A stretch of DNA of 64,000 bases. Source: an uncultured Chloroflexia bacterium. GTDB lineage: Bacteria > Chloroflexota > Anaerolineae > Fen-1058. A model generated the notes under the pieces. That model did not search any database. It had not been told where the DNA came from and was given only the letters and a program-made list of their open reading frames with translations. This document shows, one piece after another, positions 4,679 through 46,383 of the stretch (its first letter is position 1; each line of letters begins with the position of its first letter). The stretch is taken from the NCBI GenBank assembly GCA_963844815.1, contig CAWJPR010000018.1, positions 462,498 to 526,497 on the forward strand, given 5' to 3'. The position numbers and the translations under genes were made by a program.

Positions 4679-4784
4679 GTGTCATTCTGAACGAGCGAAG
4701 CGAGTGAAGAATCTCTACCACAGCTTGCACTTGATGCCAATCAAGTAAGAGATGCTTCGTCCCTGCGGGACTCAGCATGACACT
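4679..4784. repeat. REP/MITE-like imperfect palindrome, family A (GTCATTCTGAACGAGCGAAGCGAGTGAAGAATCTC ... GAGATGCTTCGTCCCTGCGGGACTCAGCATGAC)
   Basis: inverted arms read directly; intercistronic. Confidence 0.7.
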
Positions 4785-4818
4785 CATGATCTAACTTCGT
4801 CAATGCGAAAGAGGAAGC

Positions 4819-5709
4819 ATGAAACTCTATGGCGGTATTGAAGCCGGCGGCACCAAATTTGTCTGCGTGATCGGCAGCGGGCCGGACGACATCGTGGCCG
4901 AGGCGCGCATCGCGACCACGCAGCCCGCGGAAACCATCGGGCACACGATCGACTTCTTCAAGCGGCACGCGCGCGACTACCCGGTCAGCGCGGTCGGCAT
5001 TGGCTCATTCGGGCCGGTCGATCTCGATCGGGCGTCCGCGACTTACGGCTACATCACCACCACGCCCAAGCCGGGCTGGGCGCAGACCGATCTCTGCGGC
5101 GCGCTCCAGCACACCCTGCAGGTCCCGGTCGCCTTTGACACCGACGTGAACGCGGCGGCCTTTGGCGAGCATCACTGGGTCGCGGAGAATCGTTTACTCG
5201 ATCCGCTGCTCTATCTCACCATCGGCACGGGCATCGGGCTGGGCGCCATCGTCAACGGCAAGCCGCTGCACGGCCTGCTGCATCCCGAAGGGGGCCACAT
5301 GTTATTACCGCACGATCGCACGGTCGATCCCTTTGAGGGCGCGTGTCCCTTTCACGGCGACTGCTGGGAGGGCCTGGCGGCCGGGCCCGCCGTGGAAAAA
5401 CGCTGGCAGCAGCGCGGCGAAACCCTGCCGCCCGATCATCCCGCGTGGCAGCTGGAGGCGCACTACGTGGCGCTGGCCGTGGCGAATTTGATCTATTGCT
5501 TCTCGCCGCGGCGGGTGGTCCTGGGCGGCGGCGTGATGCAGCAGCCGGGCATCATCGATCGCGTCCGGGGCGAAGTGCAGCGCTCGATCAACGGCTATCT
5601 GCAATCCGAGCGGATCACGCGCGACATCGATCAACTGATCGTGCCGCCGGGACTGGGCACGCGCTCCGGGGTGCTGGGCGCGATCGCGCTGGCGATTGCG
5701 GCGGAATAA
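4819..5709 (+). CDS. ROK-family sugar kinase (fructokinase/Mak-like)
   Basis: MKLYGGIEAGGTKFVCV... glycine-rich ATP-binding N-terminus; Zn-binding PEGGHMLLPHDRTVDPFEGACPFHGDCWEGLA motif typical of ROK fructokinases. Confidence 0.85.
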   Translation: MKLYGGIEAGGTKFVCVIGSGPDDIVAEARIATTQPAETIGHTIDFFKRHARDYPVSAVGIGSFGPVDLDRASATYGYITTTPKPGWAQTDLCGALQHTLQVPVAFDTDVNAAAFGEHHWVAENRLLDPLLYLTIGTGIGLGAIVNGKPLHGLLHPEGGHMLLPHDRTVDPFEGACPFHGDCWEGLAAGPAVEKRWQQRGETLPPDHPAWQLEAHYVALAVANLIYCFSPRRVVLGGGVMQQPGIIDRVRGEVQRSINGYLQSERITRDIDQLIVPPGLGTRSGVLGAIALAIAAE

Positions 5710-5925
5710 TCGTAGAGGCGTTTTCGTGCAGGGCAAGTTGGCTACTTGCCCTGCTTTTGTTTATAGAAGACGAATCAAGCGTGAACGGCGCAGGCGTCGG
5801 AAGCGAGGCGGCATGGTGCTCCTGATGGGTTGAGGTTATGCGGCGGGGGAGATGATACCATGAAGTGAATCGAACGACGCCGAGAATGTTTTGCTTGCGT
5901 TTGCCCAGCGTATCATTCGAGCATA
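5683..5925 (+). repeat. left copy of an about 240-bp diverged direct repeat (3' end of fructokinase gene + terminator + 5' end of a downstream ORF)
   Basis: About 70-75% identical to 8536-8775, e.g. gcgatcgcgctggcgattgcggcggaataa versus gcgatggcgctggcgattgcagcggaataa. Confidence 0.6.
5731..5769 (+). terminator. rho-independent terminator after the fructokinase gene
   Basis: gcagggcaag-ttggcta-cttgccctgc stem-loop followed by ttttgtttat. Confidence 0.7.
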
Positions 5926-7785
5926 AATTAGAACGCTGTAGTTTGCGCAGTTTGCTTTACTCAGAAATAGACGATGCTAAGTTGGCGGCTGAACATAAAC
6001 TGTGCCGAAAGATTAGTTGTGCTTTTCCATATATGAAAGTAAGTGTAGTACACTCTAGCAAGAGAGTGTCCATCACGGATTCAATATTTTACGATTACCT
6101 TTCAGGAAGGATGTTGTGGGCTATGGCTAAAAGAACTGATAAACACCACCCAGATCAAATGTGGATGTTTGCAGACCTAGTTGAACAGGCTGACACCATC
6201 TCAGACATTCGAGCACGTGAGTCGCAATTGCGTGGTGAGGCCGAGATTCGTATTTCAGCGCCATCCACTCACAACTTCCCACCCTTGGTTTTTCCACAAC
6301 GGTGGGAATTACTAAAAGCAGAAACCGAAAAACGGAATATTCCAATTAAACCACTCATAATACCAGTGCAGCAGGCGCTTATAGAGATTGAAAAAGAACG
6401 TCGCCAAATCCATGAAACTGGAATGGGACGCTTGTCATCATAAGCGGAGTTTGAGGCAGCGGCAAATCGACTTTTCTAAATTCGCTGGATTTGTTTATTG
6501 GGGGCGTGAGCGTACACACTATTACTCTGCGAACAATTGATCGAAATGAATCTGTCGAGGATAAACTTGCGGCACTGCGACGCGAGAAAAGTGAATTCAC
6601 TGTTATTGTGCTTGAAGGCAAAGAGTCGCCCGGGGCCTTGAAGAGCGAAGAAATCGATATTCTCCTAACAACCCTAAACTCAGACTTTCGCCATGGCGCA
6701 GGGGAAGCATACTCTTTTTGTTATTCCAACAACCTCACAATCTGTTGCGCAGGCAAATAGTCAACGTGCAGCTGATATAGGCGGTATGACATTACGATCC
6801 CGCCCATTCTACATTTTCACCGGTCCCCGCCGAAACGAATACGAGCAGACCACTGATAAGATGCTGCGTGCTTTGAATGATTCGCGAGGACTGTTCGACT
6901 ATGGAATTACTCCCGAAACCGCTAAGGGTTTGACTGAATCTTCTGAATCCATGGGACAATTCATAATCGACTGCTATGAAGAAATCAAGCGTCAGCAGGA
7001 CGCACTTAAAACAGACGGCATTTGAGATTAGGCGAAAGAACCTGCATCTTTGGATGGTCTTTTGCTCCTATGAAGAAGACAATCGCCGAAATTACGATAT
7101 CATACGCGCACTGACCATTAGCAACTTTCAATACGCCCAAGTTGGGCGTATGTTGGTTGGTGAATCCAACGAAATCAAATTCTGGGAAGGAAGGCAGTCG
7201 ACCTTTGCATTGGCTGCACAGTATTTAGACTTGCGAGTAACTTACATGCCGATGAAGACTGCAAACGCCATTGTCACTGCATATGGCAATAAGGGAGCTA
7301 ATTGAGAAACTCAAGAAAATCCCTCTAGAAAGTGGCGAGGCGGCGGTCAAACGCGAGGCAGTTGGGACAATTGCTCAAGAGTCTCTCATGGGTACAGCAC
7401 TTGGAGCATTTCTGCGCGGTGAAGAATTCGTTGAGCGTGATATTGTCCGTCGAAACAAACCCCGAGAGAAACAAAACTCTTTTCAAAGAGATAATGAAAA
7501 CCTCAAATGACAAAGACCTCAACGCCCTTGTTGCCCAAACATTGCGTGATGCAGCAGTAAAGACGCCGAACAGAAATGTTTATACTGAGACTAACGATTG
7601 ATGACGGTGGGCACCTTGTTACGGATATCGCTGTAGTAACGCCGACGGACATTTACTGCATAGAGTTAAAGTGGCGCTCATCTTTGCTGGCCGAGAGTGA
7701 AATAACCAGAGAAACTTTGGACAGAGTAAAAGACTTTTCTATTCAACTACCCGAACTGCGAAACCTTCTAGGAAGGCTCGACTAA
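5865..7785 (+). pseudogene. decayed AT-rich gene broken into at least 7 overlapping frame-shifted ORFs; C-terminal piece has a PD-(D/E)XK-nuclease-like motif
   Basis: Consecutive overlapping ORFs 5865-6443, 6491-6760, 6693-7025, 6976-7305, 7271-7510, 7332-7601, 7576-7785 in shifting frames; last piece has TDIAVVTPTDIYCIELKW (D...ELK); GC far below flanks. Confidence 0.5.
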
Positions 7786-7814
7786 GTTATGCGCTGTGTG
7801 AAGTTCGCGCTTAC

Positions 7815-8234
7815 TCAGGGCGCAAACTGCCGCAAGAATTCGTCGGGGGTGATGATTGAAATCCCACGGAAAGGGTTCAAGGTCAATAAATCCTGATCGC
7901 CGCTAATCAGATAAGCAGCCGCGCCGTTGACGGCCAATTCCAAGTACTTGTCATCCTTGGGATCACGGCAGGCATGAATTTCTTCGGCGATTTCAACCAG
8001 CTGGGCCTCACGAACCAGGGCTTCAATGAATCGATCGCGCTCCTGTGGGAGGATATACCGCTCAAACTTCTCGCGGCACAGGACTTCGATCAACTCAGTC
8101 AGCACCGGCAGCGAAATCAAAATGACAGGCTGCTCCAGAGCGAGACGAAAGGCTTGACCCGGCTTCGAGTGCTCAAAGAGCAATGCGCTGATCGCCACAT
8201 TGGCGTCAAAGATGCAGCATGTATCACTCGTCAC
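7815..8234 (-). CDS. vapC: PIN-domain toxin (VapC-like) of a type II toxin-antitoxin pair
   Basis: 139-aa intact ORF with PIN-like acidic residues (IFDANVAISAL..., ...ISGDQDLL); 11-nt overlap with upstream small ORF. Confidence 0.7.
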   Translation of the reverse strand: MTSDTCCIFDANVAISALLFEHSKPGQAFRLALEQPVILISLPVLTELIEVLCREKFERYILPQERDRFIEALVREAQLVEIAEEIHACRDPKDDKYLELAVNGAAAYLISGDQDLLTLNPFRGISIITPDEFLRQFAP

Positions 8235-8451
8235 TGAGCAGATCCTGCAGCATGTGAGGGGTCAAGCCACGCGCCTGTGCATTGCGGCTGATCTCACTCA
8301 TCACGCGCGTGAGGGATTCGGGAGTTCGCGTCGCCTCCAGCAGGCGCAAGCTTAGCAAGGTTTCCAGTTTCCGCCGCATTTCAGGCGTAACCGATGCGAA
8401 GGCGCGAGCCGCTTGTGGATCAACTTGAATTGTGATGGGAATGGTCGTCAT
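8224..8451 (-). CDS. antitoxin partner of the PIN toxin (small, acidic C-terminus)
   Basis: 75-aa ORF immediately upstream of and overlapping the PIN toxin gene; classic TA arrangement. Confidence 0.6.
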   Translation of the reverse strand: MTTIPITIQVDPQAARAFASVTPEMRRKLETLLSLRLLEATRTPESLTRVMSEISRNAQARGLTPHMLQDLLSDE

Positions 8452-8465
8452 TGCGATACCTCCTG

Positions 8466-11400: not shown

Positions 11401-12600
11401 GCACATAAGGAAAGTTCTGTTTAAGTATTTCGCCAAGTAACTCTTTGGGAATTTTTTGAATCCAAATTTCAGGAGCACCGGCTATCGGACGTTCACCTGC
11501 ATTGTCAATTGCTACTATCCGAATGCGATTAGGATACCCTCTCGTGAGATCGATCAACTTTGCTCGAGTATTGAGCGAGCACTCATCAACAACCAGAATT
11601 CCATAAAGAGTTCGGTCGTTTGCAAGTGCGCCATGCAATTGAACGGCAAAGTGCTCGTCATTTGTATAAATGACAAGATTTTCCTTGCGCCGGCATGTTT
11701 CATGCTTCATAAACCATTCGCGTCTTCAACACCCGCTCTCCTGAATTGGCAGTCAATCTGTCCGTCGAAGTGACAGATTGACGTAATGTCTCAGCATTTC
11801 TCTGGAAAACATCCCACTGCGGAGGTGGAACAAAGGTAGGCGTGATCGCAGTTACGTTGGTTTTCCAAATGTCAAGATGAATAGCCTTACCAACGAGGCT
11901 CGGAGAAAAGATGCGCTGGATTAATGCTGGAAGCCGATTTGCCCGGTAAACAAATATCTGCGGTGAGTATAACATAAACCTAGAGCGCAACAGCGATTTA
12001 TGCTCTGCACACCTTGCTCAAGAACTCTCTCCCATTCATCTACTTTATTTGAGAGGCTATCACAAATACAAAATCGGTAGGCATATCCATTTAAAACACA
12101 CTCTCGGGAGTAGCGTTTGTTAACCTCTTCGAGTAGACTTTCCTTCAGATACATCTCCGGCGTCTGTTGCCTTAAACTGCCATATAGTTCTTTCCATCAT
12201 CCAACCTATAGGATCATCGACAATGCCTTGTTCGACAAGCGTATCAACGCCGCCATCCTGGATATTCACACGTAGATTGGTATGGATGCTCGCTTGCGGC
12301 AGATTGCTTACAGCAACTTGAGATCGAATAATGCTGTCAACTAATTCCGTAGAATCGATCACCGCCGGGTGTTCGTCCTAAATGAATAACATCATGGGCA
12401 TTTATAGTCCACATGTAACACTCCCTCTTCGATCGCTTTGCCAGCACATACAATCTATTTGGTCTGAGTGTAATTTGCTCAAAATGCCAGATTGTTCGAG
12501 TCTTGTAGCATCTGAGGATTAGTATAAGCATAAAGAGAATATAACGATCAACAGCCGCTGCATGCAATTCATGCTGTTGAGTCCTCGCGCACAGTGCCAT
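8466..12600 (-). pseudogene. heavily decayed AT-rich gene(s) on the minus strand (many frameshifts and stops); one fragment has a DExH-like Walker-B-like motif (ILVVDECS)
   Basis: Chain of short overlapping minus-strand ORFs (12337-12600, 12120-12362, 11921-12154, 11700-11990, 11336-11710, 10674-10916, 10516-10704, 10224-10439, 9776-10312, 8897-9268, 8466-8845) in changing frames; low GC. Confidence 0.45.
8536..8775 (+). repeat. right copy of the about 240-bp diverged direct repeat (second, non-functional copy of the fructokinase 3' end ...GAMALAIAAE-stop, hairpin, ORF start MKQDRTESRGM...)
   Basis: aligned by eye with 5683-5925. Confidence 0.6.
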
Positions 12601-12644: not shown

Positions 12645-12777
12645 GAGACCTCGGAGGTTTTCATCAGCAGGCAGGCACGGCTCGATCATCGATCAGGTTG
12701 ATGGGCAGGCAATGACAGAAAACCGATAACTCCACGGTTGGGGGCGCTGCGCGAAACCTCCGAGGTCTTGATCAGTT
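12645..12777. repeat. two copies of a 23-26 nt motif with a central palindrome (GAGACCTCGGAGGTTTTCATCAGC / GAAACCTCCGAGGTCTTGATCAG) at the right edge of the AT-rich island
   Basis: 12645-12670 and 12753-12777; read directly. Confidence 0.5.
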
Positions 12778-16120: not shown

Positions 16121-16639
16121 TCAAAGTTCTTTGTAGAAGATCACCGTTGTCCACAGCCTGCCATCCGGGAAACTGGCATAGTTGGGAATCTCGCCGACCC
16201 GCACGTAACCGAGTTTCAAATAGAGTTGCTCGGCCAGTTCGCCTTCGATCGTATCCAGCACCAGCAAAGTAAGGTCGCGTTGTCGCGCCTCGTGCTCGAT
16301 CGCCTCCATCAAGCGGCGGCCCAGGCCGCGATTGCGATGGCGGCTGTGAACGAGCAGCTTCTGCACCTCGGCGCGATGGCGGCCGGTTTCCTTCTGGCCC
16401 AGCGACAACTGCACCGAACCGGCCACTGCGCCGCTCTCCGTGGTGGCGACGAGTATCACGCGATACGGTGATTCAACCTCGCGCAGCACGCCCTGCCAGT
16501 AAGCCTCGGCGGTTTCGCGCTTTAGCGGCGAGAGGAAGCCCACCGATGCGCCGCCCTCGACGGAATCACGGAGGAGATCGATCAGACCTTCGCGCACGGC
16601 GTAAGCCGGTGGAAGCGCCAATCGTTGTAGAGTGAACAT
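16121..16639 (-). CDS. GNAT-family N-acetyltransferase
   Basis: Acetyl-CoA binding motif HSRHRNRGLGRRLMEAIEHEAR (Q/RxxGxG/A). Confidence 0.8.
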   Translation of the reverse strand: MFTLQRLALPPAYAVREGLIDLLRDSVEGGASVGFLSPLKRETAEAYWQGVLREVESPYRVILVATTESGAVAGSVQLSLGQKETGRHRAEVQKLLVHSRHRNRGLGRRLMEAIEHEARQRDLTLLVLDTIEGELAEQLYLKLGYVRVGEIPNYASFPDGRLWTTVIFYKEL

Positions 16640-16757
16640 ACCGTCTGCCTGTTGTAAGATAACAAAATCGTAGGGGCGAGACCGCAGATGCCGCGCTGTC
16701 GGCGGCACACCTCGCCCCTACGATTACATCGGCTTCCGTCCAGTCAACACATCGGAC

Positions 16758-19700
16758 TCAGCGCATGACGAGCGGCAGATACACGGCGTGGCCGGTGACC
16801 TGCAGCGTGACGTGCACTTGGAACGGACTATTCACAGCCTGGGCTGAGTTGAAGGTGATCGTGCCCGTAAAGACTCCGACGGGCATGCCACCGGGATAGA
16901 TTGTCAGCACCGGATCGGCGGGCGTCTGCCCGCCGCCCGTATTCAGGGTCAGCCAGGGTATGTTCTCGCTGGCCGTCCAGTCCAGCACGGCTTCGCCTGA
17001 GTTGCGCACATTGAGCGTCTGTGTCACCGGAACACTGCCGACAGCCACCACGGCGCCCGCGCCGACGGGAGCCACATCAAGGTTGTTCGCTTCCGGGGTG
17101 CTTTCGTCGGCGATCGTGATCGACCGCTGCACCTGCGTGCTCATCCCGTTGCTGTCCGTGACCTGCAAGGTGATCACGTGATTGCCCGTGGTCAGCTCGG
17201 CGGTGTTCAGGCTCGCGCCCGTGCCCAGGACGCCGTCGATGCTGGACGACCATTGGAATGCGGCATCGTCCGGCGTTCCATCTTCGAGATCATAGGCGGT
17301 GCCCTGCAGCGCCACTTGTTGCGTCGGATAGAACACCTGATCGGGGTTGGGCGAGACGATCTCGACGGTCGGCGCGTGCAGCGGCAGGCCGAGCGATCCA
17401 TGGTATCCTGCCGCTCAAGAAACCGTCCGAGGCGACGATCCGCAGCAGTCCCGTGCCGCCGGGCAGCTGATTCGTGTTCAGTTGCAACCCGGTGCCCGTC
17501 AGGTTGGTGGCCAGCGTTTGCCAGCTGACGCCGTTGTCATTACTGTACAGCAGACTATACGTCAGCGCATCGCCGTCCAGGTCAGAGCCAGTCCAGGAGA
17601 CCTGGAATGGACCGGCCGAAAGCGTGCTGCCGGCCGCGGGCGAGATCAGGTTGACGGTGGGCGCGTTGGCACTGGCAGTGCGCGAGGCGAGGACTTGTCC
17701 CCCGTGACGGATCTCGACTCGGACTGTGCCCGCCGTCCAGGGAACGACTTCGGCGATCACGGCCGGTGTGCCGGGGCTTTCTTCAGCGTCCGTTCAGCTC
17801 ATCGGGGGCGAAGGGATACGTCGCCAGATCATTGTTCGCTGCTCCCACCAGCGCGATCGTCCAATCGCCGGGAACGGGCAGAGGCAGCGTGTTGTCCTGA
17901 GTGATCAGGTAGACGTTGTCGAGCGTGGCGGTATTGCTCTCCAGATCGGCCATGCCGGCCACCGCCAGAAATTGGCTGGCCGTAACCTCCTCCGGTCTTG
18001 CGCTCAGCAAGCCGATCCCCACCAGGTAACTTCGAATGCCTTCGTAAGTGAAGTCTGATACCCATTCGTTGGAGCAGTACGTCATGACATCGGTCCAGCT
18101 GGGCGGATAGATGGCGCGCGTGGTGATATCAAAGCCGTAGATCGCGGTGTTTCCGCTCAACGCCGGGCTGATGCGCCCACCCGTATAGGGATAAGGAACA
18201 CCGCCGCCCGCGCCGCAAAACTCCGCGTGATAGCGGCCGCGCGTGTGGCCGATCTCGTGCCCGCCGTACCAGTCGTTGTACGAGCCGTCGAAGTCCCAGC
18301 CCCAGTTGCCGGGCCCAGACGGTCCGGCGGCGATGGTGCCGGGGATGCCGGCGGCCTTGCCGCGCATGAAACCGCCGCCGTCGTCGACGACGCCGTAGTA
18401 AACGACGCGCGAGTCTTCACCGCTGAAGATGATCCGCAGCAGCTTGGCCAGCGCCAAATAGCCGTGCAGCGTATCCACATTCGGCAGTCCACCCACCGGA
18501 TAGATGTAGGTCTGGCGCGTCACCTGCAAACTATTGATCGGGTAGGCCCGCCGCAGCCAGGATTCCAGCGCCGACAGATGACTGTTGCCCGCCAAGTAGG
18601 TGTTGCCGCCTGCGGTGTATTGCACATTCATCAAGCGCAGCCGGAGCGGCGGCGTGCTCTTGAAGTTCACCGTCACTGTGCGGGTGTTGTTGCCCAACAC
18701 CAGATCGTTCTTGGCATTGTTGGGATCCAGTCTGGCCGTGAGCGTCAAGTTGCCGGCTGTGGTCCAACTGGAAGGCAGCTCGAACCAGAAGCTGTCGTTG
18801 ATCTGCCCGCGATTGGGACTGTTGAGCACGGTAATGTCGCTGCCGGGGTTGCCGGGATTCAGGACCGGGGCCAGGCTGACGAAGCCATGCTTGCCGCTGA
18901 GCGTGGCAAACACGTCGTTCGCATTGACGGGCGAACTGACGTGCACCCGCGCATAGGTGCGCTTGCCCGCCACCAGATCGACGCTGTTGTTGAGATCCTG
19001 GATGGCCTGCGTCACCTCGATCGAATCCACGCGCATATCCGGCCCGGGCGGCGGGCCGGATCCGGCCCAGAACAGGTGCACCGGCAGGAAAGCCTCGAAG
19101 AGCAGTGTAGTTTGATTGTTGTCCCACATCTGGATGCGCACTTTGTCCACGACCGTCGGCCCGGCGGTCAGGGTGAACGAGCCGGTGCCGCTGCCCGAGC
19201 CGACCGGGTAGACGGGCGAGCCGTGTGCGCGCATAACCAGGAGATAGGTTCGGGCCGCTGAACGGCCGGGCAAAAATGCGTACGCCATCTTGGTTGGTGG
19301 TGTAATTGAACGTCAGATTGACGTTATGGTTATACTTGAAGACATTCGGCGTATCGGGGCTGAGTTCGATGTGGGTGACGATATTCTCGGGCTGCGGAAG
19401 CGGTAGTAGACCGGCAGGAACGCTTCAAACAGGAGCATGGTTTGATTGTCATCCCACATCTGGATGCGGATCTGATCGACCACGACTTGCCCGGTAGTGA
19501 TGCTGAACGAGCCTGTGCCGCTGCCGGAGCCGGCCGGGTATAAGGGTGAACCGTGCGCGGCATAGTTCGGAGTTAAGGCTCCGTTAGTAAAGGGCCGGGC
19601 CCAGATGCGCACGCCCCCTTGCTGCCGGGTGATGTAATTGAATCTCAAATCGACGTTCTGACCGAACTTGAGCACGTCCGGGGTATCCGGACTGAGGCTG

Positions 19701-20203
19701 ACGTGGGTGACCATGTTCGGCTGATCGCTGTAGAGGTAATACACCGGGATGAAGGTCTCGAAGAGCAGCGTGGTCTGATTAGCATCCCACATCTGGAGGC
19801 GAATCTGATCGACCACGGTGGTTCCGCTCGAGATAGTGAACCAGCCGGTGCCTGACCCGGTGGCGGAGGTGGGGTATAGCGGCGAGGGGTGCGCCGCGTA
19901 GTTGGGGCTGAGCGCGCCGTTGGTGAAGGGCCGGGCGAAGATGCGCACACCGCCCGCTGCGGTGGTGCTGTAACTAAAACTCAGATCGACGTTCTGGTTG
20001 TCGCGCAGGATGTTGGGCGTGTCCGGGCCGAGGCTGATGGCCGTGACCAGATGATCCCCCGGCGCGGCGACAACTTCCGGGCCGGTTCCCTGGCCGACCG
20101 GCACAACTGACGCAGAGCGACTGGCGGCCGGGGCGAAGATCAGTGTAAACAGCAGCAGGTAAACAGTGAAACGCCACGTGGTGGACTGAAATCGAGTTCG
20201 CAT
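16758..20203 (-). CDS. large secreted multidomain zinc metalloprotease (signal peptide, 3 tandem ~100-aa N-terminal repeats, HEXXH catalytic domain, Ig/PKD-like and BACON-like C-terminal domains); interrupted by about 4 apparent frameshifts
   Basis: Pieces 19313-20203, 17783-19288, 17290-17760 and 16758-17336 read as one protein. Signal peptide is MRTRFQSTTWRFTVYLLLFTLIFAPAAS. The repeat ...GSGSGTGSF..VVDQIRIQMWD.NQT.LLFE.F.PVYY occurs 3 times. Catalytic site HEIGHTRGRYH. Frame slips sit near 19385, 19275, 17775 and 17400. Confidence 0.7.
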
Positions 20204-20379
20204 GCTAGCCTCCCTTGTGCTTGTTGCGCATACTCAATTGCTCAGTAAAAAGACGGTTGGACTACGGCTCACGCTGTGGTTCACCTCCTGAGTGTGCGGA
20301 CGCCGGAGAGACGGCTCGACGCGGCACGGCTGATGGTCCTGCGAGTCACACGAGGTACTGAATCAATCTTATCATCTTT

Positions 20380-20790
20380 CGGGAAAAGTCGAGAGGTGCG
20401 TATTTCATTACCATCGTCACTTACCAGCGCGAGTTGTTATTCGACGATCCCGTATTTCGCAAGATTGTCGAGACATTCTGGCAGCGCATTCCGCAACACA
20501 TGCCGCGCATAAAGTTGGACATTTTCATCATGATGCCCAATCACCTTCACGGCATCCTATGGCTGATCAATGCTGGTCTTGGCGCTCCAGCGCGTGACAC
20601 TATTGCTTCAACTCAACCTCCAATACACCATCGACAATCCGGCCAATTGGGCGCGGGACACGGAAAACCCCGATCGATCTGTGTAGGGGCGAGGCATTCG
20701 CACCACGATTCCCGTTGATTCACCTCACCGCCATGGCAGCGATGCTGATCGACATTCCCCTCTTGGCGAATGCCTCGCCCCTACCCTCCC
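20380..20790 (+). mobile_element. decayed IS200/IS605-family (Y1 HUH, RAYT-like) transposase remnant with a perfect 19-bp inverted repeat at its 3' side
   Basis: GAYFITIVTYQRELLFDDP... and HUH motif DIFIMMPNHLHGILWL; no start codon and a degenerate C-terminus; IR GTAGGGGCGAGGCATTCGC (20683-20701) / GCGAATGCCTCGCCCCTAC (20768-20786). Confidence 0.55.
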
Positions 20791-26929: not shown

Positions 26930-26995
26930 GCTGCCCCGTCTCTTTACGCAGTACGCACTACGCGCCACGTATTGCGTAGTGCGTAAACCGTTTCA

Positions 26996-28107: not shown

Positions 28108-28210
28108 GTGTCGAAGCATTCTGAGCGGAGTCAGCGCAGTCGAAGAATGCGGGCTCCCCGACAGCGCGTCCTTCGACTACGTCCCTTTGGGACTCCGCTC
28201 AGGATGCTGG
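28108..28210. repeat. REP/MITE-like nested palindrome, family A variant (GCATTCTGAGCGGAGTC ... GACTCCGCTCAGGATGC)
   Basis: intercistronic between the SIS and Gfo/Idh genes. Confidence 0.65.
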
Positions 28211-29264: not shown

Positions 29265-29410
29265 ACCGAACCTTTGGACACGGATGACACGGATCATACG
29301 GATTACTGAAATCAATGTCGAATCCGTGTTGATCCGTTCAATCCGTCAAACATATGCGGTGCACGAAGTCCCCATCTTTTAGGGGAATGCTCCCGTCCGT
29401 GTACAAAAAA

Positions 29411-30372: not shown

Positions 30373-30449
30373 GTGTCATTCCGAGCGAAGCGAGGAATCT
30401 CTTCAGGTCACGCAGAGACCCCTCGCCACTCCGCGGCTCGGGGTGACAC
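30373..30449. repeat. REP/MITE-like palindrome, family A (GTGTCATTCCGAGCGAAGCGAGGAATCTC ... GGCTCGGGGTGACAC)
   Basis: intercistronic between the HD and PTE genes. Confidence 0.65.
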
Positions 30450-32095: not shown

Positions 32096-32122
32096 TGTAG
32101 CCTCCCTTAAACTTGGTATGTC

Positions 32123-32250
32123 GTCATTGCACGCAGCATCCTGAGCGCAGCGGAGTCGAAGGATGCGAAGGATGCGACACTTTTTGCGACGAAGCGATCG
32201 CCTACAGTTACGATCGAGATTGCTTCGCAGAAAACGCTCCTCGCAATGAC
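32123..32250. repeat. REP/MITE-like composite palindrome, family A (GTCATTGCACGCAGCATCC... ...GATTGCTTCGCAG..CTCCTCGCAATGAC)
   Basis: intercistronic between the permease and MetE-like genes. Confidence 0.7.
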
Positions 32251-32258
32251 GTGGTCAT

Positions 32259-35730: not shown

Positions 35731-35770
35731 GTCATCCTTGCGAGGGCGTGATAGCCCTCGCAAGGATGAC
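35731..35770. repeat. perfect 17-bp inverted repeat (GTCATCCTTGCGAGGGC / GCCCTCGCAAGGATGAC) between the binding-protein and ATPase genes; REP-family-A-like intercistronic hairpin
   Basis: read directly from sequence. Confidence 0.8.
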
Positions 35771-38161: not shown

Positions 38162-38965
38162 TTACTTCACTGTCCAGCCACCATCTACGGTCAACACCGC
38201 ACCCGTCACAAACTTTGCCTGCTCCGAAGCGAGATACAAGGCCGCTTGTGCCACATCACCCGGCTGTCCGAAATCGCCCGTCAACGGCTGAAGTTCACTC
38301 AAGCGCGCGCGAATCGCCTCGTTCGCCTGGGCGCGTCGGCTCATCGGGGTGGCGATCAACCCCGGACAGATCACATTCGCGCGAATCCGCTGCGGCGCGT
38401 AGTAGGCCGCGATCGAGCGCGTCAGGCTGATGATGCCGCCCTTGCTCGCCGCGTAAGCGTGCGTCGCGAAATCTTCATCGCCGCCCACCAGCCCCAACAC
38501 CGACGACAGGTTGACGATCGCGCCGCCGCCGGCTTTCAGCATTTCACGGATCGCATACTTGCAGCCCAGGAACACGCTCTTCAAATTGATTGCCAGCACG
38601 CGATCCCACGCTTCTTCCGTGCAGTCGGCCGTTGGCCCATCGCCCCACTTGCGGCCGCTCAACCCCGCGCCGTTGAAGATCACGTCGAGCCGGCCAAACT
38701 CTGCAACCGTACGTTTTACAGCGGTTTCAACATCCTGCGCGACGCTCACATCCGTTCGCGCGAAGATCGCGCCGCCGCCGTTCGTTCGAATCTCCTCGAC
38801 CGTCTGCTGCCCGCCCGTTTCATCCAGATCGAAGATCGCGACGCGCGCGCCTGCCTGTGCGAACAGCAGCGCGGTGGCCCGCCCGATGCCGCTGGCCCCG
38901 CCCGTCACGATGGCCACCTTGCGATCCAACACTCGTTCTGCCACAATCACTCTATCCACCGTCAT
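38162..38965 (-). CDS. SDR-family short-chain dehydrogenase/reductase
   Basis: TGGASGIGRA cofactor motif; YAASK catalytic motif. Confidence 0.85.
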   Translation of the reverse strand: MTVDRVIVAERVLDRKVAIVTGGASGIGRATALLFAQAGARVAIFDLDETGGQQTVEEIRTNGGGAIFARTDVSVAQDVETAVKRTVAEFGRLDVIFNGAGLSGRKWGDGPTADCTEEAWDRVLAINLKSVFLGCKYAIREMLKAGGGAIVNLSSVLGLVGGDEDFATHAYAASKGGIISLTRSIAAYYAPQRIRANVICPGLIATPMSRRAQANEAIRARLSELQPLTGDFGQPGDVAQAALYLASEQAKFVTGAVLTVDGGWTVK

Positions 38966-39094
38966 GGCCAGGAGGCCACAGGCCGACGACACATGCGCCT
39001 GCGTTGCGCTTGGCGCAGTGCAGGTGAGCAATCCCGGTGCCAATCAACAAGAGATTGCTTCGCCGCTGCGCGGCTCGCAATGACGTTTCCGCGT

Positions 39095-41145: not shown

Positions 41146-41949
41146 TTACCTGGCGGCTACAACGGCAATCTCCACCTGCGCGCGATCGCCGCGCTGCTTG
41201 GCGACGCCATGCTCCACGGGCCGGCCTTCCACGTCATACATGGTGCTGTGAATGACTAACAGGGGCATGCTGGCTTTGACGTGCAGCAGCCGGGCCTCTT
41301 CCGGCGAACAGGGAGCCGCCTCGGCCAGGCGCACGCCATGATCGAGCCGGATGCCGTATTTGGATTGCATCAGCGCGTAGAGCGAAGCCGTGGTCAGATC
41401 TTCGCGCTCCAGTCCCGGAAACAACTGGGCCGGCAAATAGTTCGTGGCGATGTCAAACGGCTTATCGTCGACGTAGCGCAACCGCACGAATTTCACGACC
41501 GGGGCGCCCAGGTTCAGGCCCAACTCAGCAGCGACACGTTGATCCGCCGGCGCCAGGGCCTGTTCCAGCACGCGGATTTTGACCCCCAGGCCGCGCCGCG
41601 CCATATCGGCGTGAAAGCCAGCCGTCTCCTGCGCCCACTGCACGCGGAATTTGTGCGGCGAAACAAACGTCCCTTTGCCCTGCACCGTGTACAGCAGGCC
41701 CTGATGGACCAAATCGTTCAGCGCTTTGCGCACCGTGATGCGGCTGACCTCGTGCGCCTGGCACAATTCGTTCTCAGACGGGATCGGCTGGCCGCTCTGC
41801 AGCAGGTCAATCTGCTCACGCAAGGTTTCACGCAGCTGATAATACTTCGGCAGTGGAGCGGCTTTCCCGCCGGGTTGACTCTTGGGCAGGCGCGTTGTCG
41901 TATTCACGCTGGAGATTTCCCGGAGTCTGAAGTGAGTACAACTCGTCAT
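41146..41949 (-). CDS. GntR/HutC-family transcriptional regulator (winged HTH + UTRA effector domain)
   Basis: LPKYYQLRETLREQI...SENELCQAHEVSRITVRKALNDLVHQGLLYTVQGKGTFV. Confidence 0.8.
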   Translation of the reverse strand: MTSCTHFRLREISSVNTTTRLPKSQPGGKAAPLPKYYQLRETLREQIDLLQSGQPIPSENELCQAHEVSRITVRKALNDLVHQGLLYTVQGKGTFVSPHKFRVQWAQETAGFHADMARRGLGVKIRVLEQALAPADQRVAAELGLNLGAPVVKFVRLRYVDDKPFDIATNYLPAQLFPGLEREDLTTASLYALMQSKYGIRLDHGVRLAEAAPCSPEEARLLHVKASMPLLVIHSTMYDVEGRPVEHGVAKQRGDRAQVEIAVVAAR

Positions 41950-42181
41950 GTTGTCATTACAAGCCAAGTGCATTATACTATAATTTATCAACCCGGACGC
42001 CCGCAAAAAAGCGGCGTAACTCCCACAAAAACGCGCGGTGGCGGCCAACTTACGAACATTTCACTATAACTTACGAAAATTCGTGAAGTAAGTCATGTGA
42101 CTGATTACACATTGATCACATGACAAGCGTACCGAAATTGTGTTACGCTGGAAGCCAGCCCACCGGGGTCGATGGCGCTGC

Positions 42182-43438
42182 ATGCCTAGAACTGCTGCCA
42201 AACCGATCGCTCCAACGCTCCCCACTGCCCCGCTGATTGTGTCAACGCACGCGGCGCAGATCATCGCGGCGCTGCGCAAGCGCGAAGCGATCTCGCGCAC
42301 CGATCTGGCGCGCCTGACGGGCTGGTCGCGCCCGAAAGTCACGGCCGAGGTGGGCAAGCTGGCGAAGCGCAACCTCCTGGTCGAAAGCGGTGAAGGCGCC
42401 TCGCAGGGTGGGCGGCGGCCGCGCTTGCTGAAGTTCAACTATGAATTAGGCTATATCGTCGGCGTAGACATCGGCGCAACGAGCATGGATATCGCGGTCG
42501 CCGATCTCAACGCGCAGGTTCTGCAGCGCGACAGCGGTCCGGCTGATGTGCGCGACGAGCCGCTCGAGCTGCTGGGCGAAGCAAAACGGCGCGCGCTGGC
42601 CCTGCTGGCCAGACGTGACATTCGACCCGAACAAGTTCTGGGCGTGGGCGTGGGCGTGCCCGGTCCGGTGGACTTCATCAAAGGGGTATTAGTTGCGCCG
42701 CCGTTGATGCCCGCCTGGGAAGGCTTTTCCATTCGCAGCTATTTTCACCCGATCTTTCCTTCGGCGTTCATCGCCGTCGACAATGACGTCAACATCATGG
42801 CGCTGGGTGAATTGAAGGGCGGCGCCGGAATGGGCCAGGATGATTTCATCTTCGTCAAGATCGGCACGGGCATCGGCGCGGGCATCGTGTGCCACGGCGT
42901 CATTCATCGCGGCCACACCGGCAGCGCGGGAGATATCGGGCACATTTGCGCCGATCACCAGGGCCCGATCTGCCGCTGCGGCAACGTCGGCTGCCTGGAA
43001 GCGATGGCCGCCGGGCCGGCGATTGCCGATCGGGCACTGGCCGCCGCGCAGAATGGCGCGAGCCCGATCCTGGCGCACAAGCTCGCCGCGAGCCAGGGCG
43101 TGCTGCGCGCCGAGGATGTGGCCGCGGCCGTTCGCGAGGGCGATCACGCCGCCATCGAAATCGTGCAGCGCAGCGGGCAGCTCATCGGCGATGTGTTGGC
43201 CGGGCTGGTGAACTTCTTCAATCCCAGCCTGATTCTGGTGGGCGGCGGCGTCGCCAACATTGGCAACCAGCTGTTGGCGTCGATCCGCCAGGCCGTGCTG
43301 CGCCGCTCGACGGCGCTGGCGACGCGCGAATTGATCGTGAGCTATTCGCCGATGGGCGGCGAAGCGGGCATGACCGGCGCGATTCATCTGGCCCTAGAGC
43401 ACTTGTTTGTCGTGCAGGATAAACCTTCAGGAGTGTGA
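42182..43438 (+). CDS. ROK-family transcriptional repressor (NagC/XylR-like; N-terminal HTH + ROK sugar-binding domain)
   Basis: ISRTDLARLTGWSRPKVTAEVGKL HTH; ROK Zn motif CRCGNVGCLEAMA. Confidence 0.85.
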   Translation: MPRTAAKPIAPTLPTAPLIVSTHAAQIIAALRKREAISRTDLARLTGWSRPKVTAEVGKLAKRNLLVESGEGASQGGRRPRLLKFNYELGYIVGVDIGATSMDIAVADLNAQVLQRDSGPADVRDEPLELLGEAKRRALALLARRDIRPEQVLGVGVGVPGPVDFIKGVLVAPPLMPAWEGFSIRSYFHPIFPSAFIAVDNDVNIMALGELKGGAGMGQDDFIFVKIGTGIGAGIVCHGVIHRGHTGSAGDIGHICADHQGPICRCGNVGCLEAMAAGPAIADRALAAAQNGASPILAHKLAASQGVLRAEDVAAAVREGDHAAIEIVQRSGQLIGDVLAGLVNFFNPSLILVGGGVANIGNQLLASIRQAVLRRSTALATRELIVSYSPMGGEAGMTGAIHLALEHLFVVQDKPSGV

Positions 43439-43439
43439 C

Positions 43440-44147
43440 ATGCCACAAACCCCGACCTTGAACAGCAGAACCATTACCTACGAGCAGCTCGCCAAAACGA
43501 TCGATCACTCGCTGCTGCGGCCCGAACTCACCGAAGCCGACGTCGTCGCCGGCTGTGACTTGGCCGCGCAGTATCACGTGGCCTCGGTGTGCGTGAAGCC
43601 CTGCCACGTCAAGCTGGCCAAGAAACTGCTGGCCGGTTCCGACGTCGCCGTGGGCACCGTCGTCGGATTTCCGCACGGCAACTCGACGATGGCGACCAAG
43701 GTGTTTGAAACGCAGGAAGCCGTGGCCGCCGGCGCCACCGAAATTGACATGGTCATCAACATCGGCGAGCTGCAATCGGGCCACGCGGACTATGTCCGCA
43801 ATGAGATCCGCGCCGTGGTCAATGCCGCGCACCCGCAGGCGATCGTGAAAGTGATTCTGGAGAACGCTTACCTCACGCACGCCGAGAAAGTGCTGGGCTG
43901 CCAGTTGGTGGAGGAAGCCGGCGCGGATTTCGTGAAGACCTCGACCGGCTTTGCGCCGACCGGCGCAACGGTGGAAGACATCACCTTGATGCGGGCGTCC
44001 GTGGGGCCGCAGGTGCAGGTCAAGGCCGCGCACGGCGTGCGCACGCTCGATCAACTGCTGGCCATGATCGATGCCGGCGCCACCCGCTCGGGCGCCACGG
44101 CGACGGCGACGATTCTCGACGAATTCAAGCAACGCCACGGAGGATAA
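43440..44147 (+). CDS. deoC: deoxyribose-phosphate aldolase
   Basis: [15 protein letters not shown]...VCVKP...VKTSTGF, the catalytic Lys region of DeoC. Confidence 0.85.
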
Positions 44148-44148
44148 C

Positions 44149-45306
44149 ATGCCAGATTTGAAAGTAGGCGTGATCGGCACAGGGTTCATCGGGCCAGTGC
44201 ATGTGGAAGCGCTGCGGCGTCTGGGGATCGAGGTGGCGGCGGTGGCCGGACCGCGCGCCGACGGCGTGGCCGAAAAAGCCCGGGCCCTGCGCATTCAGAA
44301 GTACTACGAGACAGCCGAAGCGTTGATCGCCGATCCGGCGATCGACGTCGTGCACATCACCTCGCCCAATCACGCGCATTACCCGCAGGCTAAGGCAGCG
44401 CTGCTGGCGGGCAAGCATGTGGTGTGCGAGAAGCCGCTGGCGATGAACTCGGCCGAATCGAGCGAGCTGGTGAAGTTGGCCAAGGACGCGCAGCGGGTTA
44501 ACGCCGTTAACTTCAACATTCGCTTCTATCCGTTGTCGCATCAGGCGCGGCAGTTGGTGCAGAGCGGCGAGATCGGCGAAGTGTACATCGTGCAGGGATC
44601 GTATCTGCAGGACTGGCTGCTGCTGCCCACCGACTGGAACTGGCGGCTGGAACCGCAGTTCAGCGGCGAAATGCGCGCCGTGGCCGACATCGGATCGCAT
44701 TGGCTCGATCTGACGACGTTTATCACCGGTCTGCAAATCGAAGCCGTGTGCGCCGATTTTGCGACGTTCTTGAAGACGCGCCGGAAGCCGGCGCAGCCGG
44801 TGGAAACCTTCACGGGCAAACTGCAGACCGCCGCGGAATACGTGGAGCAGCCCATCAACACCGAGGACTATGCCACCGTGATGCTGCGTTATAACAACGG
44901 CGCGCGCGGCGTGATGACGGTCGCGCAGGTCTGCGCCGGGCGCAAGAATCGCTTAAGCTACGAAATCGACGGCGCGCGCGCGGCCCTCGTCTGGGACGGC
45001 GAGCGGCCCAACGAGCTGTGGATCAACCATCGGGAACGGCCCAACGAACTGCTGTTGAAGGATCCCGCGCTGCTGGCGCCCGAAGCGCGGCAGTTCGCGT
45101 CCTATCCCGGCGGGCACAACGAGGGCTTTCCCGATACGTTCAAGCAGCTGTATCATGCCATCTATCGCTACATTGAAGCGGGCGACTTCAGCGCCCGGCC
45201 CGACTTCCCGACCTTTGAAGATGGTCAGCGCGCCCTGCGGGTGGGTGAGGCGATCTTCCGCAGCGCGAAAGAGGGACGCTGGGTAAATATGAGCGAAATC
45301 GGCTAG
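44149..45306 (+). CDS. Gfo/Idh/MocA-family oxidoreductase
   Basis: [22 protein letters not shown]; VCEKPLAM motif. Confidence 0.85.
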
Positions 45307-45318
45307 TAATGAACAAGC

Positions 45319-45360
45319 AATGAGTAACGAGTAATTCACTTGTTACTCATTACTCGTTAC
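45319..45360. repeat. family-B repeat: GAGTAACGAGTAAT and inverted TTACTCATTACTCGTTAC, forming a hairpin downstream of a TAG-TAA-TGA triple stop
   Basis: read directly; 17 nt upstream of the isomerase start. Confidence 0.65.
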
Positions 45361-45376
45361 GCATTAGGAGGGAATC

Positions 45377-46291
45377 ATGAAACTCGGATTGATGAGCGCA
45401 GCTTTCCCGAACATGTCGCTGGAAAATCTCGCCAGGTGGGCGGCCGGCAATGGGTTTGAGATGCTGGAACTGGCCTGCTGGCCGGTCGGCAAAGCCGATC
45501 GGAGGTACGCGGGGGTTACGCACGTCGACGTGGCTACCCTGACACCCGCCCAGGCCAGGAAGATTCAGGGCCTGATCAAGAAGAACGGCCTGGAAATCTC
45601 TTCGTTAGGCTATTACCCCAATCCGCTCCATCCCGATCTGCAGCACCGCAAAGGCGTGATCGAGCATCTCAAGAAAGTCATCACGGCCGCGGAACTGCTC
45701 AACGTCCCGGTGGTGGGCACGTTCGTCGGGCGCGACAAGGACAAGACGCTGGAAGAGAATCTGGACGAATACGCCAGGGTGTGGCCCGCGATTGTGAAGT
45801 TTGCCAACGACCACGGCGTGAAGATTGCGATCGAGAACTGCCCGATGATCTTCTCCAACGACGAATGGCCCGGCGGCAACAACCTGGCGATCTCGCCCTA
45901 CGTGTGGCGCAAGATGTGGGAGATCATTCCCGATCCGAACTTCGGCCTTAATCTCGATCCGTCGCACCTGATCTGGCAAATGATCGATGTGGTGCGCGTG
46001 GTGTACGAGTTCGGCCCGCGCATCTTCCACGTGCACGCCAAGGACCTGCGTATCGATCGGGAGCAGCTGTATCAGCGCGGCGTGATGTCGCTGGGCATGG
46101 GCTGGCAAATTCCGCGCCTGCCCGGCCTGGGCGATGTGAATTGGGCGCAGTTCATCAGCGCTTTGTACGGTGCGGGCTACGACTACGCGATCAGCATCGA
46201 GCACGAAGATCGCGCCTTTGAGAAGACTGAGGAGTTGATCAAGCGCGGCTTCCTGATCTCGCGCGACGCATTAAGGCCGTACATTCATTAA
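45377..46291 (+). CDS. sugar phosphate isomerase/epimerase (xylose-isomerase-like TIM barrel)
   Basis: 304 aa; IAIENCP and ISIEHEDRAFE motifs. Confidence 0.8.
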   Translation: MKLGLMSAAFPNMSLENLARWAAGNGFEMLELACWPVGKADRRYAGVTHVDVATLTPAQARKIQGLIKKNGLEISSLGYYPNPLHPDLQHRKGVIEHLKKVITAAELLNVPVVGTFVGRDKDKTLEENLDEYARVWPAIVKFANDHGVKIAIENCPMIFSNDEWPGGNNLAISPYVWRKMWEIIPDPNFGLNLDPSHLIWQMIDVVRVVYEFGPRIFHVHAKDLRIDREQLYQRGVMSLGMGWQIPRLPGLGDVNWAQFISALYGAGYDYAISIEHEDRAFEKTEELIKRGFLISRDALRPYIH

Positions 46292-46297
46292 ACCACC

Positions 46298-46383
46298 GTC
46301 ATTGCGAGCCGCGCAGCAGCGAAGCAATCTCCCGCGCAAGTCATGAGATTGCGTCGTCGGCCTGTGGCCTCCTCGCAATGACT
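46298..46383. repeat. REP/MITE-like palindrome, family A (GTCATTGCGAGCCGCGCAGCAGCGAAGCAATCTC ... GAGATTGCGTCGTCGGCCTGTGGCCTCCTCGCAATGAC)
   Basis: intercistronic between the isomerase and glucokinase genes. Confidence 0.75.

Follow-up and report, generated by a model that had tools for sequence, protein, structure and literature searches.

Palindromic repeats in the sugar-utilisation operons

We analysed a stretch of 64,000 nucleotides (the window) from an uncultured Chloroflexia bacterium (assembly GCA_963844815.1, contig CAWJPR010000018.1, positions 462,498 to 526,497), whose proteins have their closest named homologs in metagenome-assembled genomes (MAGs) of Chloroflexota/Anaerolineae. The sugar-utilisation operons of the window are interspersed with short palindromic repeats, here called family A. 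A preliminary description had read them as resembling repetitive extragenic palindromes (REPs), had listed six elements and at least seven intercistronic copies, and had pointed to a decayed transposase in the same window as belonging to the expected class of mobilising enzyme. All six elements are present where they had been placed. In total, the window holds nine family-A elements (Table 1), of which seven lie in gaps between co-directional genes, the seventh being that at 38960-39085, and two lie in frame in HdrA-like genes. Each of the nine is a head-to-head (inverted) pair of units or is derived from such a pair.

The elements are limited to intercistronic gaps and gene-internal linkers, in agreement with the REP-like character first ascribed to them, and all seven intergenic copies are flanked, as had been noted, by co-directional genes, which are Pfam-supported. 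These genes belong to sugar-utilisation operons and encode ROK kinases, GFO/IDH/MocA oxidoreductases, SIS proteins, an ABC sugar transporter, TIM-barrel proteins and a PTE protein. Family-A copies fill 7/14 co-directional gaps of at least 60 nt and 0/2 divergent gaps. Further candidates were rejected as coding sequence: 42260-42294 (covariance-model E=0.019), which belongs to a ROK regulator, and two identical TGTC hairpins at 53480 and 60483, which belong to FlpD paralogs.

Table 1. Family-A elements, RAYT remnant and GTAG repeats of the window, with their setting and composition (RAYT, REP-associated Y1 transposase; ORF, open reading frame).
Feature	Coordinates	Strand or setting	Composition	Evidence
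Family-A head-to-head doublet	4680..4782	gap DUF4432 / ROK genes, both +	TGTC-ATTCT..AGAAT-CTC 4680-4715 (+); TGTC-ATGCT..AGCAT-CTC 4749-4782 (-)	covariance model, 30.0 and 38.3 bits
Related-subfamily doublet	28108..28210	gap GFO/IDH/MocA / SIS genes, both -	stems GCATTCT/AGAATGC and GCATCCT/AGGACGC	
Family-A doublet	30374..30448	gap PTE gene / 133-aa ORF, both -	minimal TGTC-ATTCC-GA-GCGAAGC-GA-GGAAT-CTC (+, 30374-30401); TGTC-ACCCC..GGGGT-CTC (-)	covariance model, 33.9 and 39.7 bits
Family-A doublet	32122..32251	gap Meth_synt_2-like / ABC permease genes, both -	left CGTC-ATTGC...GCGAT-CGC with nested subfamily-2 hairpin in loop; right CGTC-ATTGC..GCAAT-CTC (-)	covariance model, 41.3 bits
Collapsed doublet	35731..35770	gap sugar-binding protein (Peripla_BP_4) / ABC ATPase genes, both -		
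Family-A doublet	38960..39085	gap adh_short / SIS_2 genes, both -	left degenerate (ATGGC for ATTGC) with 37-nt nested insertion; right CGTC-ATTGC-GA-GCCGCGCAGCGGC-GAA-GCAAT-CTC, 39051-39085 (-)	covariance model, 48.7 bits
Family-A doublet	46297..46383	gap xylose-isomerase-like TIM barrel / ROK kinase genes, both +		covariance model, 48.4 and 46.8 bits
In-frame family-A doublet	51853..51939	inside HdrA-like ORF 49959-52871	~28 aa added just before VVMIQCVGP motif	
In-frame family-A doublet	59109..59256	inside paralogous ORF 58494-59747, same linker	left 59109-59181, long loop with second small repeat CCCCAGCGC..CGGACAGGGCGTG; right 59215-59256 (-)	covariance model, 38.9 bits
RAYT pseudogene	20395..20686	+		NCBIfam NF047646 (REP_Tyr_transpos)
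GTAG-tagged REP doublet	20683..20784	abuts RAYT remnant 3' end	GTAGGGGCGAGGCATTCGC ... GCGAATGCCTCGCCCCTAC	
Second GTAG-tagged REP doublet	16666..16725			

Architecture of the family-A unit

Read from its 5' end, a family-A unit consists of (C/T)GTC, a 5-bp stem whose first pair is A-T, then GA, an inner hairpin that varies between units, GA(A), the second stem arm and CTC. Among the 14 tagged units of the window, the tag is CGTC in seven, TGTC in six and AGTC in one; both units at 28108-28210 are untagged. In 11/11 aligned window units, the tag G, T, C and A do not vary and a C directly follows the 3' arm; position +2 after GCAATC is C in 94% of 197 units from other genomes, among the matches listed. 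The 3' tail of the unit reads CTC or CCC. The first stem pairs are A-T and T-A in every window unit except one (ACCCC). The five base pairs are followed by a G.A/A.G mismatch pair and an inner stem of 2-5 bp, and the minimal unit comprises nine stacked positions and a GAA loop only when the G.A pairs are counted. GTCATT arms had initially been described as common to the elements; the one at 28108-28210 (GCATYCT...AGRATGC stems) belongs to a related subfamily that keeps the GAGCGGAGTC core while missing the GTC tag and the 3' C, and scores only 8.6 bits with the covariance model.

The outer stems of the window units include compensatory changes, occurring as ATTGC/GCAAT, ATTCC/GGAAT, ATTCT/AGAAT, ACCCC/GGGGT and ATGCT/AGCAT. 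The covariance-model alignment (A4) was unsuited to counting covariation because the search pattern had selected ATTGC stems, and we therefore used a pairing-agnostic search for partner units instead. Of the 21 non-ATTGC stems that it returned, ten form 5/5 pairs and five form 4/5. The two units of one doublet may differ in their stems, as at 30374-30448, where the stems are unlike and each is self-complementary; thus, it is the hairpin of the unit that is conserved, and not a long pairing between units. At 46297-46383, both units carry ATTGC/GCAAT stems. Whole doublets fold at -38 to -55 kcal/mol (z -2.1 to -5.9). The collapsed element at 35731-35770 has retained two outer half-units, GTCATCCTTGCGAGGGC and its complement, which form a perfect 17-bp hairpin (-36.4 kcal/mol, z=-9.9) with no U-tract.

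The repeats are in clear excess over chance. The exact 11-mer GTCATTGCGAG occurs seven times in the window against 0.08 expected (100 dinucleotide shuffles, largest 1). A descriptor of the whole unit (GTC + 5-bp stem + GA...GA(A) + stem' + CTC) has 11 matches against a shuffle mean of 0.48 and a maximum of 2, a control that is partly circular, as the descriptor was drawn from these same window copies. With a descriptor derived from the literature (YGTC-W-Y + 5-bp stem + C), 19 matches compare with a shuffle mean of 5.8 and a maximum of 11. The degenerate 12-mers of the preliminary description, searched with 2 mismatches, gave 22 hits in the window against 18.7 by chance and so do not stand out, whereas the exact cores lie far above chance; the signal therefore resides in the exact cores together with the structure.

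No Rfam covariance model matched at gathering thresholds, and none matched on the elements at E<=5. A full-text literature search with the family-A core sequences returned unrelated primer matches only. Several other readings of the unit were considered and rejected. A hammerhead-like one (GUC and GA...GAA around a stem) lacks the CUGANGA core and the three-way junction, and in a kink-turn reading the bulge is 1 nt and on the wrong strand. Integron attC sites do not apply, there being no GTTRRRY cores and the neighbours being ordinary operon genes, and neither do the PATEs of IS200/IS605, as the units are mostly inverted and not co-oriented.

Distribution across bacteria

We scanned one genome per species, 596 Gb in all, for GTCATTGCGAG-N5-30-GAAGCAATCTC, a pattern for which our own arithmetic expects ~2 matches, and found at least 120 matching loci. 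The family is thus not unique to this region, in line with the dispersed family that had been proposed and for which a genome-wide check had been suggested. Among the matches listed are Chloroflexota, several proteobacterial classes, Bacteroidota, Patescibacteria, Planctomycetota, Firmicutes, Omnitrophota, Nitrospirae, Elusimicrobiota, Atribacterota and others, and many of these matches, in many phyla, contain an identical 28-mer, GTCATTGCGAGCGAAGCGAAGCAATCTC. Cultured hosts of a family-A unit include Methylosinus, Aulosira and Novosphingobium, the last with 36 places on one replicon, pSA1. Around the 120 loci, again among the matches listed, 47 unit pairs are head-to-head ('+-'), 11 are tail-to-tail ('-+') and 34 have the same orientation.

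Besides doublets, we observed tandem same-orientation arrays of whole units (28 nt, with spacers of 7-9 nt) or of half-units (...CAGAATGACA repeated), at L117 1824-2030, L004 1345-1508 and L141 450-600 (L numbers designate loci outside the window) and in the ssn flanks of L253 and L256. Simple doublet insertion is no explanation for these arrays. A predicted prophage of Helicobacter canis (BK070053.1, L222) carries minimal units at 12004-12031 and in three other places, all in intergenic gaps, and is a possible vehicle for the transfer of family A between hosts.

Association with ssn genes

An all-against-all BLAST of the ORFs of at least 100 aa around the 120 loci returned, among the matches listed, only abundant housekeeping families (ABC ATPases and response regulators) as recurrent neighbours and no recurring transposase family. 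The ssn ORFs, at ~95 aa, fall below this cut-off and so were found only by scanning the ORFs between unit pairs. In L018 (Planctomycetota), a 96-aa GIY-YIG ORF (PF01541, E=6e-18) lies inside a family-A unit pair, in the order unit, 11 nt, ORF, 4 nt, inverted unit. The same GIY-YIG family is found inside a unit pair in L045 (Omnitrophota) and adjoining one in L080 (Lacinutrix). The L018 protein, assigned to the Ssn type by its Pfam GIY-YIG match and by homology, is 44% identical to the SsnA region of N. gonorrhoeae (E=9e-17).

PLSDB contains homologs of the L018 ORF from Rhizobium, Sphingobium, Shinella, Sinorhizobium, Neisseria, Novosphingobium, Azospirillum, Aeromonas, Planktothrix and Spirosoma. 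Almost all of these homologs stand between CGTC/TGTC hairpins in head-to-head orientation, and homologs on metagenome contigs show the same bracketing. By a single fixed descriptor, 15/17 ssn genes but 0/8 RAYT genes have a YGTC hairpin within 200 nt, whereas GTAG hairpins accompany 5/8 RAYT genes and 3/17 GIY-YIG genes; some of the 17 ssn loci are of the same species, so that they represent ~14 independent lineages. Units of the family-A type flank ssn in L018, L045, L080, L223/L246/L252, L226 and L253/L256/L257, and they bracket it in Planctomycetota, Omnitrophota, Bacteroidota and Cyanobacteriota. Units bracketing a ~95-aa GIY-YIG gene occur in L018, L045, L223, L226, L233 and L253. A look-alike of the collapsed element at 35731-35770, the hairpin GTCATCCT...AGGATGAC, adjoins ssn in Spirosoma.

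This association between ssn and hairpins was recovered independently here and is already published. The gene ssnA encodes a 94-aa single-domain GIY-YIG protein (cd10448) and is flanked by extended dRS3 repeats (NTS, CGTCATTCCCGCGMAVGCGGGAATCYRG) and their relatives (Ssn-related motifs, SRM), the NTS-ssnA-NTS layout being common and insertion-sequence-like (Chenal 2025, PMC11893778). In Neisseria and Wolbachia, Ssn binds the hairpin only as single-stranded DNA (ssDNA) and in one orientation only, its cleavage site lying a few nucleotides 5' of the tag (PMC11893778). Transforming ssDNA is restricted by SsnA in N. meningitidis (PMC11893778). Most critical for cutting and binding by SsnA are the GTC 5' of the palindrome and the C directly 3' of it (PMC11893778). 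The aligned family-A units of the window keep exactly these bases.

In Azospirillum lipoferum 4B (L227, plasmid AZO_p3, 255109-256190), we also noted an ssn gene between sufB and sufC that has CGTC hairpin doublets on both sides. Such an arrangement inside a conserved operon is the one to be expected of an inserted mobile module.

The RAYT remnant and its GTAG repeats

The window does contain a degraded HUH Y1 transposase gene of the RAYT type, as had been recognised beforehand. The remnant matches NF047646 with E=3e-8 and 33.6 bits (cut-off 80) over profile positions 7-65 of 146 and keeps the HUH motif PNHLHGI; a Pfam scan of 20395-20686 gave no match. Its N-terminal ~26 aa are missing, and an internal deletion with a frameshift removes the tyrosine motif WQRNYYEHIIR, the C-terminal tail DNPANWARDTENPDRSV being readable in another frame. 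Intact homologs of this RAYT are Y1 transposases of 170-181 aa.

The role of this enzyme in mobilising family A is unsupported, as the remnant abuts a repeat of another kind, GTAGGGGCGAGGCATTCGC, with the tag GTAG, the canonical REP tag (Nunvar 2010, PMC2817692). Family A has no GTAG tag, which stands instead on the repeats at 16666-16725 and 20683-20784, and the latter doublet is the cognate repeat of the RAYT. In L121, a 278-kb metagenome contig that is syntenic with the window at 80-93% nucleotide identity, the RAYT ortholog is intact and has the same GTAG doublets on both sides, and likewise in L122. Hairpins of the GTAG type are found, in addition, beside RAYT homologs of Leptolinea, Spirosoma and three lineages known from metagenomes or MAGs. 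Such repeats bracket the RAYT in L121, L122, L214, L215, L219 and L220; the 5/8 loci given above were counted with the strict descriptor, and more are seen by eye. The doublet at 16666-16725 is probably the former upstream flank of the RAYT, since parted from it by a 3.8-kb segment that is missing in L121. This segment (16594-20395) lies between the upstream GTAG doublet and the remnant and contains four ORFs, all on the - strand (16758-17336, 17290-17760, 17783-19288 and 19313-20203); its arrival probably removed the RAYT N-terminus.

It could still be argued that family A consists of classic REPs or REPINs moved in trans by a RAYT, the window pseudogene being a decayed copy of that enzyme. 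Family A does resemble a REPIN in that its oriented hairpins bear a tetranucleotide tag at the 5' end and form inverted doublets; the window also has a RAYT remnant, and movement of CGTC repeats by RAYTs or other transposases has been left open (PMC3733652). However, the repeats beside the remnant, and beside its intact ortholog, are GTAGGGGCGAGGCATTCGC doublets and not family A, and a search for an intact RAYT flanked by family A, which the preliminary description had suggested, found a family-A or YGTC hairpin near none of the eight RAYT loci, which come from several lineages. Moreover, no RAYT occurs in 853 kb around the 120 family-A loci (among the matches listed), the pSA1 replicon of Novosphingobium has no RAYT match in spite of its 36 copies, and no tyrosine transposase gene was found flanked by CGTC repeats (PMC3733652). 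We thus regard movement by a RAYT as very improbable. The RAYT/GTAG pair and family A are two separate systems sharing the window, the former being genuine, small and decaying.

Comparison with known repeat systems

REPs have been split into two superfamilies, GTAG-tagged repeats with RAYTs and CGTC-tagged repeats, CGTC-1 to -4 (Di Nocera 2013, PMC3733652). In the latter, the tag is often TGTC (TGTC or CCTC being allowed as terminal tag), stems of 8-9 bp with first pairs A-T/T-A enclose a loop of 4-5 nt, and an unpaired 3-nt tail (consensus CCA) follows (PMC3733652). They occur mostly as head-to-head dimers, include intragenic copies and have no dedicated transposase; members are Neisseria dRS3 and Rickettsia RPE-4/RPE-6, and they were found in five phyla, Chloroflexi not among them (PMC3733652). 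Family A resembles these repeats in its CGTC/TGTC tag, the A-T/T-A first pairs, the 3-nt tail and the head-to-head dimers, as well as in its copies between unidirectional genes, its in-frame copies of 20-30 aa and the lack of a flanking transposase gene. Its tail differs, being CTC/CCC instead of CCA.

With the NTS/SRM repeats of the Ssn system, family A shares the (C/T)GTC 5' of the palindrome, the C directly 3', stems beginning A-T, copies dispersed by hundreds and mostly intergenic, a bracketed ~95-aa GIY-YIG gene and a distribution over many phyla. Whereas the NTS/SRM repeats have an 8-bp perfect stem and a short loop, the outer stem of family A measures 5 bp and is separated by tandem G.A mismatches from an inner hairpin of 7 to ~60 nt.

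The GTAG REPs and REPINs with their RAYT, a system with which the work of Bertels and Rainey in 2011 is reportedly connected, are likewise oriented ssDNA hairpins with a tetranucleotide tag that form inverted doublets, lie inside operons and bracket a single-copy, vertically inherited partner gene. Family A differs from them in its YGTC tag, which never flanks a RAYT in the loci examined, and in its probable partner, GIY-YIG and not HUH. Rickettsia palindromic elements are inserted in frame in protein genes. Like them, the doublets at 51853-51939 and 59109-59256 are palindromic, stand in frame in the variable linkers of conserved proteins and are kept as an extra peptide; host phylum and sequence are different, and here two paralogs carry different doublets at the same linker.

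Turnover between relatives

Three adjacent orthologous gaps differ in content between the window and L121. The gap between the URO-D and GFO genes holds a family-A unit in L121 and a heptamer-based palindrome in the window; the gap between GFO and SIS holds the 28108 element in the window and heptamer repeats in L121; and that between SIS and PTE holds a family-A doublet in L121 and heptamer repeats in the window. In another relative, L133, the SIS_2 stop and the adh_short start are adjacent (TAAATG), an empty site where the window has a doublet of 126 nt. By covariance model, family A is dense in the window and L121 and was not found in relatives of 65-80% identity. The insert at 51853-51939 is also present in the closest ortholog, P0154 (82% identity), and not in P0153, P0155 and P0156 (76-78%), and a 48%-identical HdrA-like paralog has a different family-A doublet at the same linker. 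The aligned loci indicate that this lineage has both acquired and lost doublets, in intercistronic gaps as well as in permissive linkers of proteins.

The heptamer-like repeats (ACGGAT-, TACGCAC-, GAATTCC- and AATGCGG-type) are short and tandem, and in many cases inverted copies of the same repeat come after them. They occupy other intercistronic gaps (26935-26990, 29270-29350, 45312-45365, 49258-49336, 59280-59315 and 61477-61538; also L136 4100-4195) and alternate with family A at the orthologous gaps of L121, and one run lies in frame beside the 59109 doublet. A further small repeat, CCCCAGCGC...CGGACAGGGCGTG, is nested in the loops of family-A units at 59117-59165 in the window and 19570-19625 in L121, which suggests that repeats insert into repeats.

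Presence/absence polymorphism, inverted termini and a variable internal spacer would also be expected of miniature inverted-repeat transposable elements (MITEs) derived from a conventional DDE insertion sequence, whose terminal inverted repeats would be the GTCAT...ATGAC ends, and in L016 a Mutator-family transposase fragment does lie between two units. That case is a single occurrence, however, and the neighbour search above recovered no recurrent transposase family. No target-site duplication is visible, and the flanks are unconserved except for a pyrimidine at -1. In addition, each terminus is itself a hairpin with compensatory changes, and single units and same-orientation arrays are common. 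An origin as MITEs is therefore extremely improbable.

Another explanation is that family A comprises host-selected RNA elements, which as long hairpins in the transcripts of sugar-utilisation operons would protect the cistrons upstream or determine where processing occurs, independently of any nuclease. It is favoured by the restriction of all intergenic copies to gaps between co-directional genes and by the folding energies of the doublets and of the 35731 hairpin. The REPs of malE-malF and hisJ-hisQ in E. coli are an established precedent. The same placement is found for REPs in general (PMC3733652). Nevertheless, orthologous gaps in the relative of 80-93% identity hold unrelated repeats or none, so that no gap depends on its family-A element. 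The same 28-mer lies beside unrelated genes across phyla (among the matches listed), some copies are in frame inside proteins, the compensatory changes keep the unit hairpin and not the long pairing between units, single units have no strand bias (3 sense, 4 antisense), and Ssn is inactive on RNA (PMC11893778). Selection as RNA elements thus appears distinctly unlikely as the origin of the family, and an mRNA-level effect of the doublets cannot explain it, although the RNA-element model can be true as a secondary effect. By analogy, the mRNA-stabilising role that had been proposed for the repeats is plausible, as is differential expression of the flanking genes at 35731-35770.

A probable variant of the Ssn-related hairpins

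We conclude that family A is probably (at a rough probability of 0.72) a lineage-specific expansion, in a Chloroflexota genome, of the CGTC/TGTC-tagged (NTS/SRM) hairpin superfamily, and that its most likely partner is the Ssn nuclease. The unit is an oriented single-strand hairpin made of an unpaired YGTC, a 5-bp stem, a tandem G.A/A.G internal loop, an inner stem-loop, for which the GCGAAGC mini-hairpin is the shortest form, and C(TC). Head-to-head pairing places one unit in the active orientation on each DNA strand. The partner would be a ~95-aa single-domain GIY-YIG nuclease of the Ssn family (cd10448). As units of this kind also bracket the ssn genes, the doublets of the window, which enclose no ORF, look like the gene-less form of a hairpin-ssn-hairpin module. 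If the long RNA hairpins stabilise operon mRNA at all, they would do so only incidentally. We infer that this genome encodes Ssn, that Ssn recognises family A and that its activity drives the spread of the repeats.

Several observations weigh against this conclusion. A search of the window and of 0.92 Mb of relatives' loci recovered no ssn gene, and the partner is therefore putative in this organism. Where ssn genes do occur, they appear single-copy at fixed loci across samples, and this positional stability speaks against an actively transposing gene. We know of no strand-joining activity of GIY-YIG nucleases, and Ssn-driven copying accordingly lacks a worked-out mechanism. Whether computed as RNA or as DNA, the nearest-neighbour energies of single-unit hairpins are weak and do not surpass those of shuffles; what supports the unit hairpin is comparative and not thermodynamic evidence. 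Single units, in a small sample, also lack a strand bias with respect to transcription.

The architecture departs from that of CGTC REPs as well: their stems are perfect over 8-9 bp and enclose loops of 4-5 nt, whereas the family-A stem spans 5 bp and is followed by G.A mismatches and an inner hairpin that varies. The published SRM search sequence (HGTCWYN(0-2)YYVSBRHN(0-5)WNVSBRGN(0-2)RNCYNB) has 0 matches in the window and in L018, L045, L080, L223 and L226, while it does match the proteobacterial ssn loci L224, L225, L227-L230 and L232. It misses family A because of the different architecture (5-bp stem, tandem G.A, variable inner hairpin). On this comparison, we regard family A as a variant of the CGTC-tagged (Ssn-related) repeats and not as a plain member.

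A more far-reaching proposal is that the hairpin-ssn-hairpin module is, or was until recently, an autonomous mobile element, with the ORF-less doublets as its miniatures, copied via ssDNA by the GIY-YIG nuclease. We consider this rather unlikely. If true, it would mean a mobility chemistry unlike that of DDE, HUH, serine and tyrosine enzymes, it would account for the near-identical 28-nt units across bacterial phyla, and family A would represent a separate subclass, which has a G.A-mismatch core and escapes the published SRM motif.

Other features of the window

Two paralogous FlpD/MvhD-like genes on the + strand (53246-53719 and 60252-60713) match PF02662 with E=7e-47 and 2e-49 when TGA is read as Cys. 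The in-frame TGA, at 53465 and 60468, falls on the Cys of a VAGC..G.CHY..GN motif, and an identical 24-nt hairpin, TGTCATTACCTGGAAGGTAATCTC, lies 12 nt past it, at 53480-53503 and 60483-60506. The TGA and the hairpin are a candidate selenocysteine codon with a SECIS-like hairpin. The hairpin fits loose YGTC-hairpin descriptors and is a look-alike of family A.

Another inverted-repeat family is represented at 12646-12768 (AGACCTCGGAGGTTT / AAACCTCCGAGGTCT) and 53677-53776 (AGACCTGGCAGGTT / AACCTGCCAGGTCT), with arms ~70-95 nt apart. The HdrA-like ORF at 49959-52871 encodes 970 aa, compared with ~500-640 aa in its homologs, and its Pfam domains begin at residue ~490; an upstream gene, fused or mis-joined, may account for its N-terminal ~480 aa.

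Implications

These results correct a pairing that was natural but wrong: the GTAG REPs belong with the decayed RAYT, and family A, the more abundant of the two, is associated with another class of enzyme. Filled and empty sites in close relatives, in intercistronic gaps as well as in frame in an HdrA-like protein, provide raw material for working out how such repeats spread. If family A is the Ssn-related variant proposed here, the Ssn/SRM system would extend to a Chloroflexota lineage and to a hairpin variant outside the published motif, with a 5-bp stem, tandem G.A and a GNA mini-hairpin or longer inner stem. As the published motif misses this variant, motif-based genome surveys likely undercount the system, and the variant would supply new candidate substrate-enzyme pairs for ssDNA-cutting tools.

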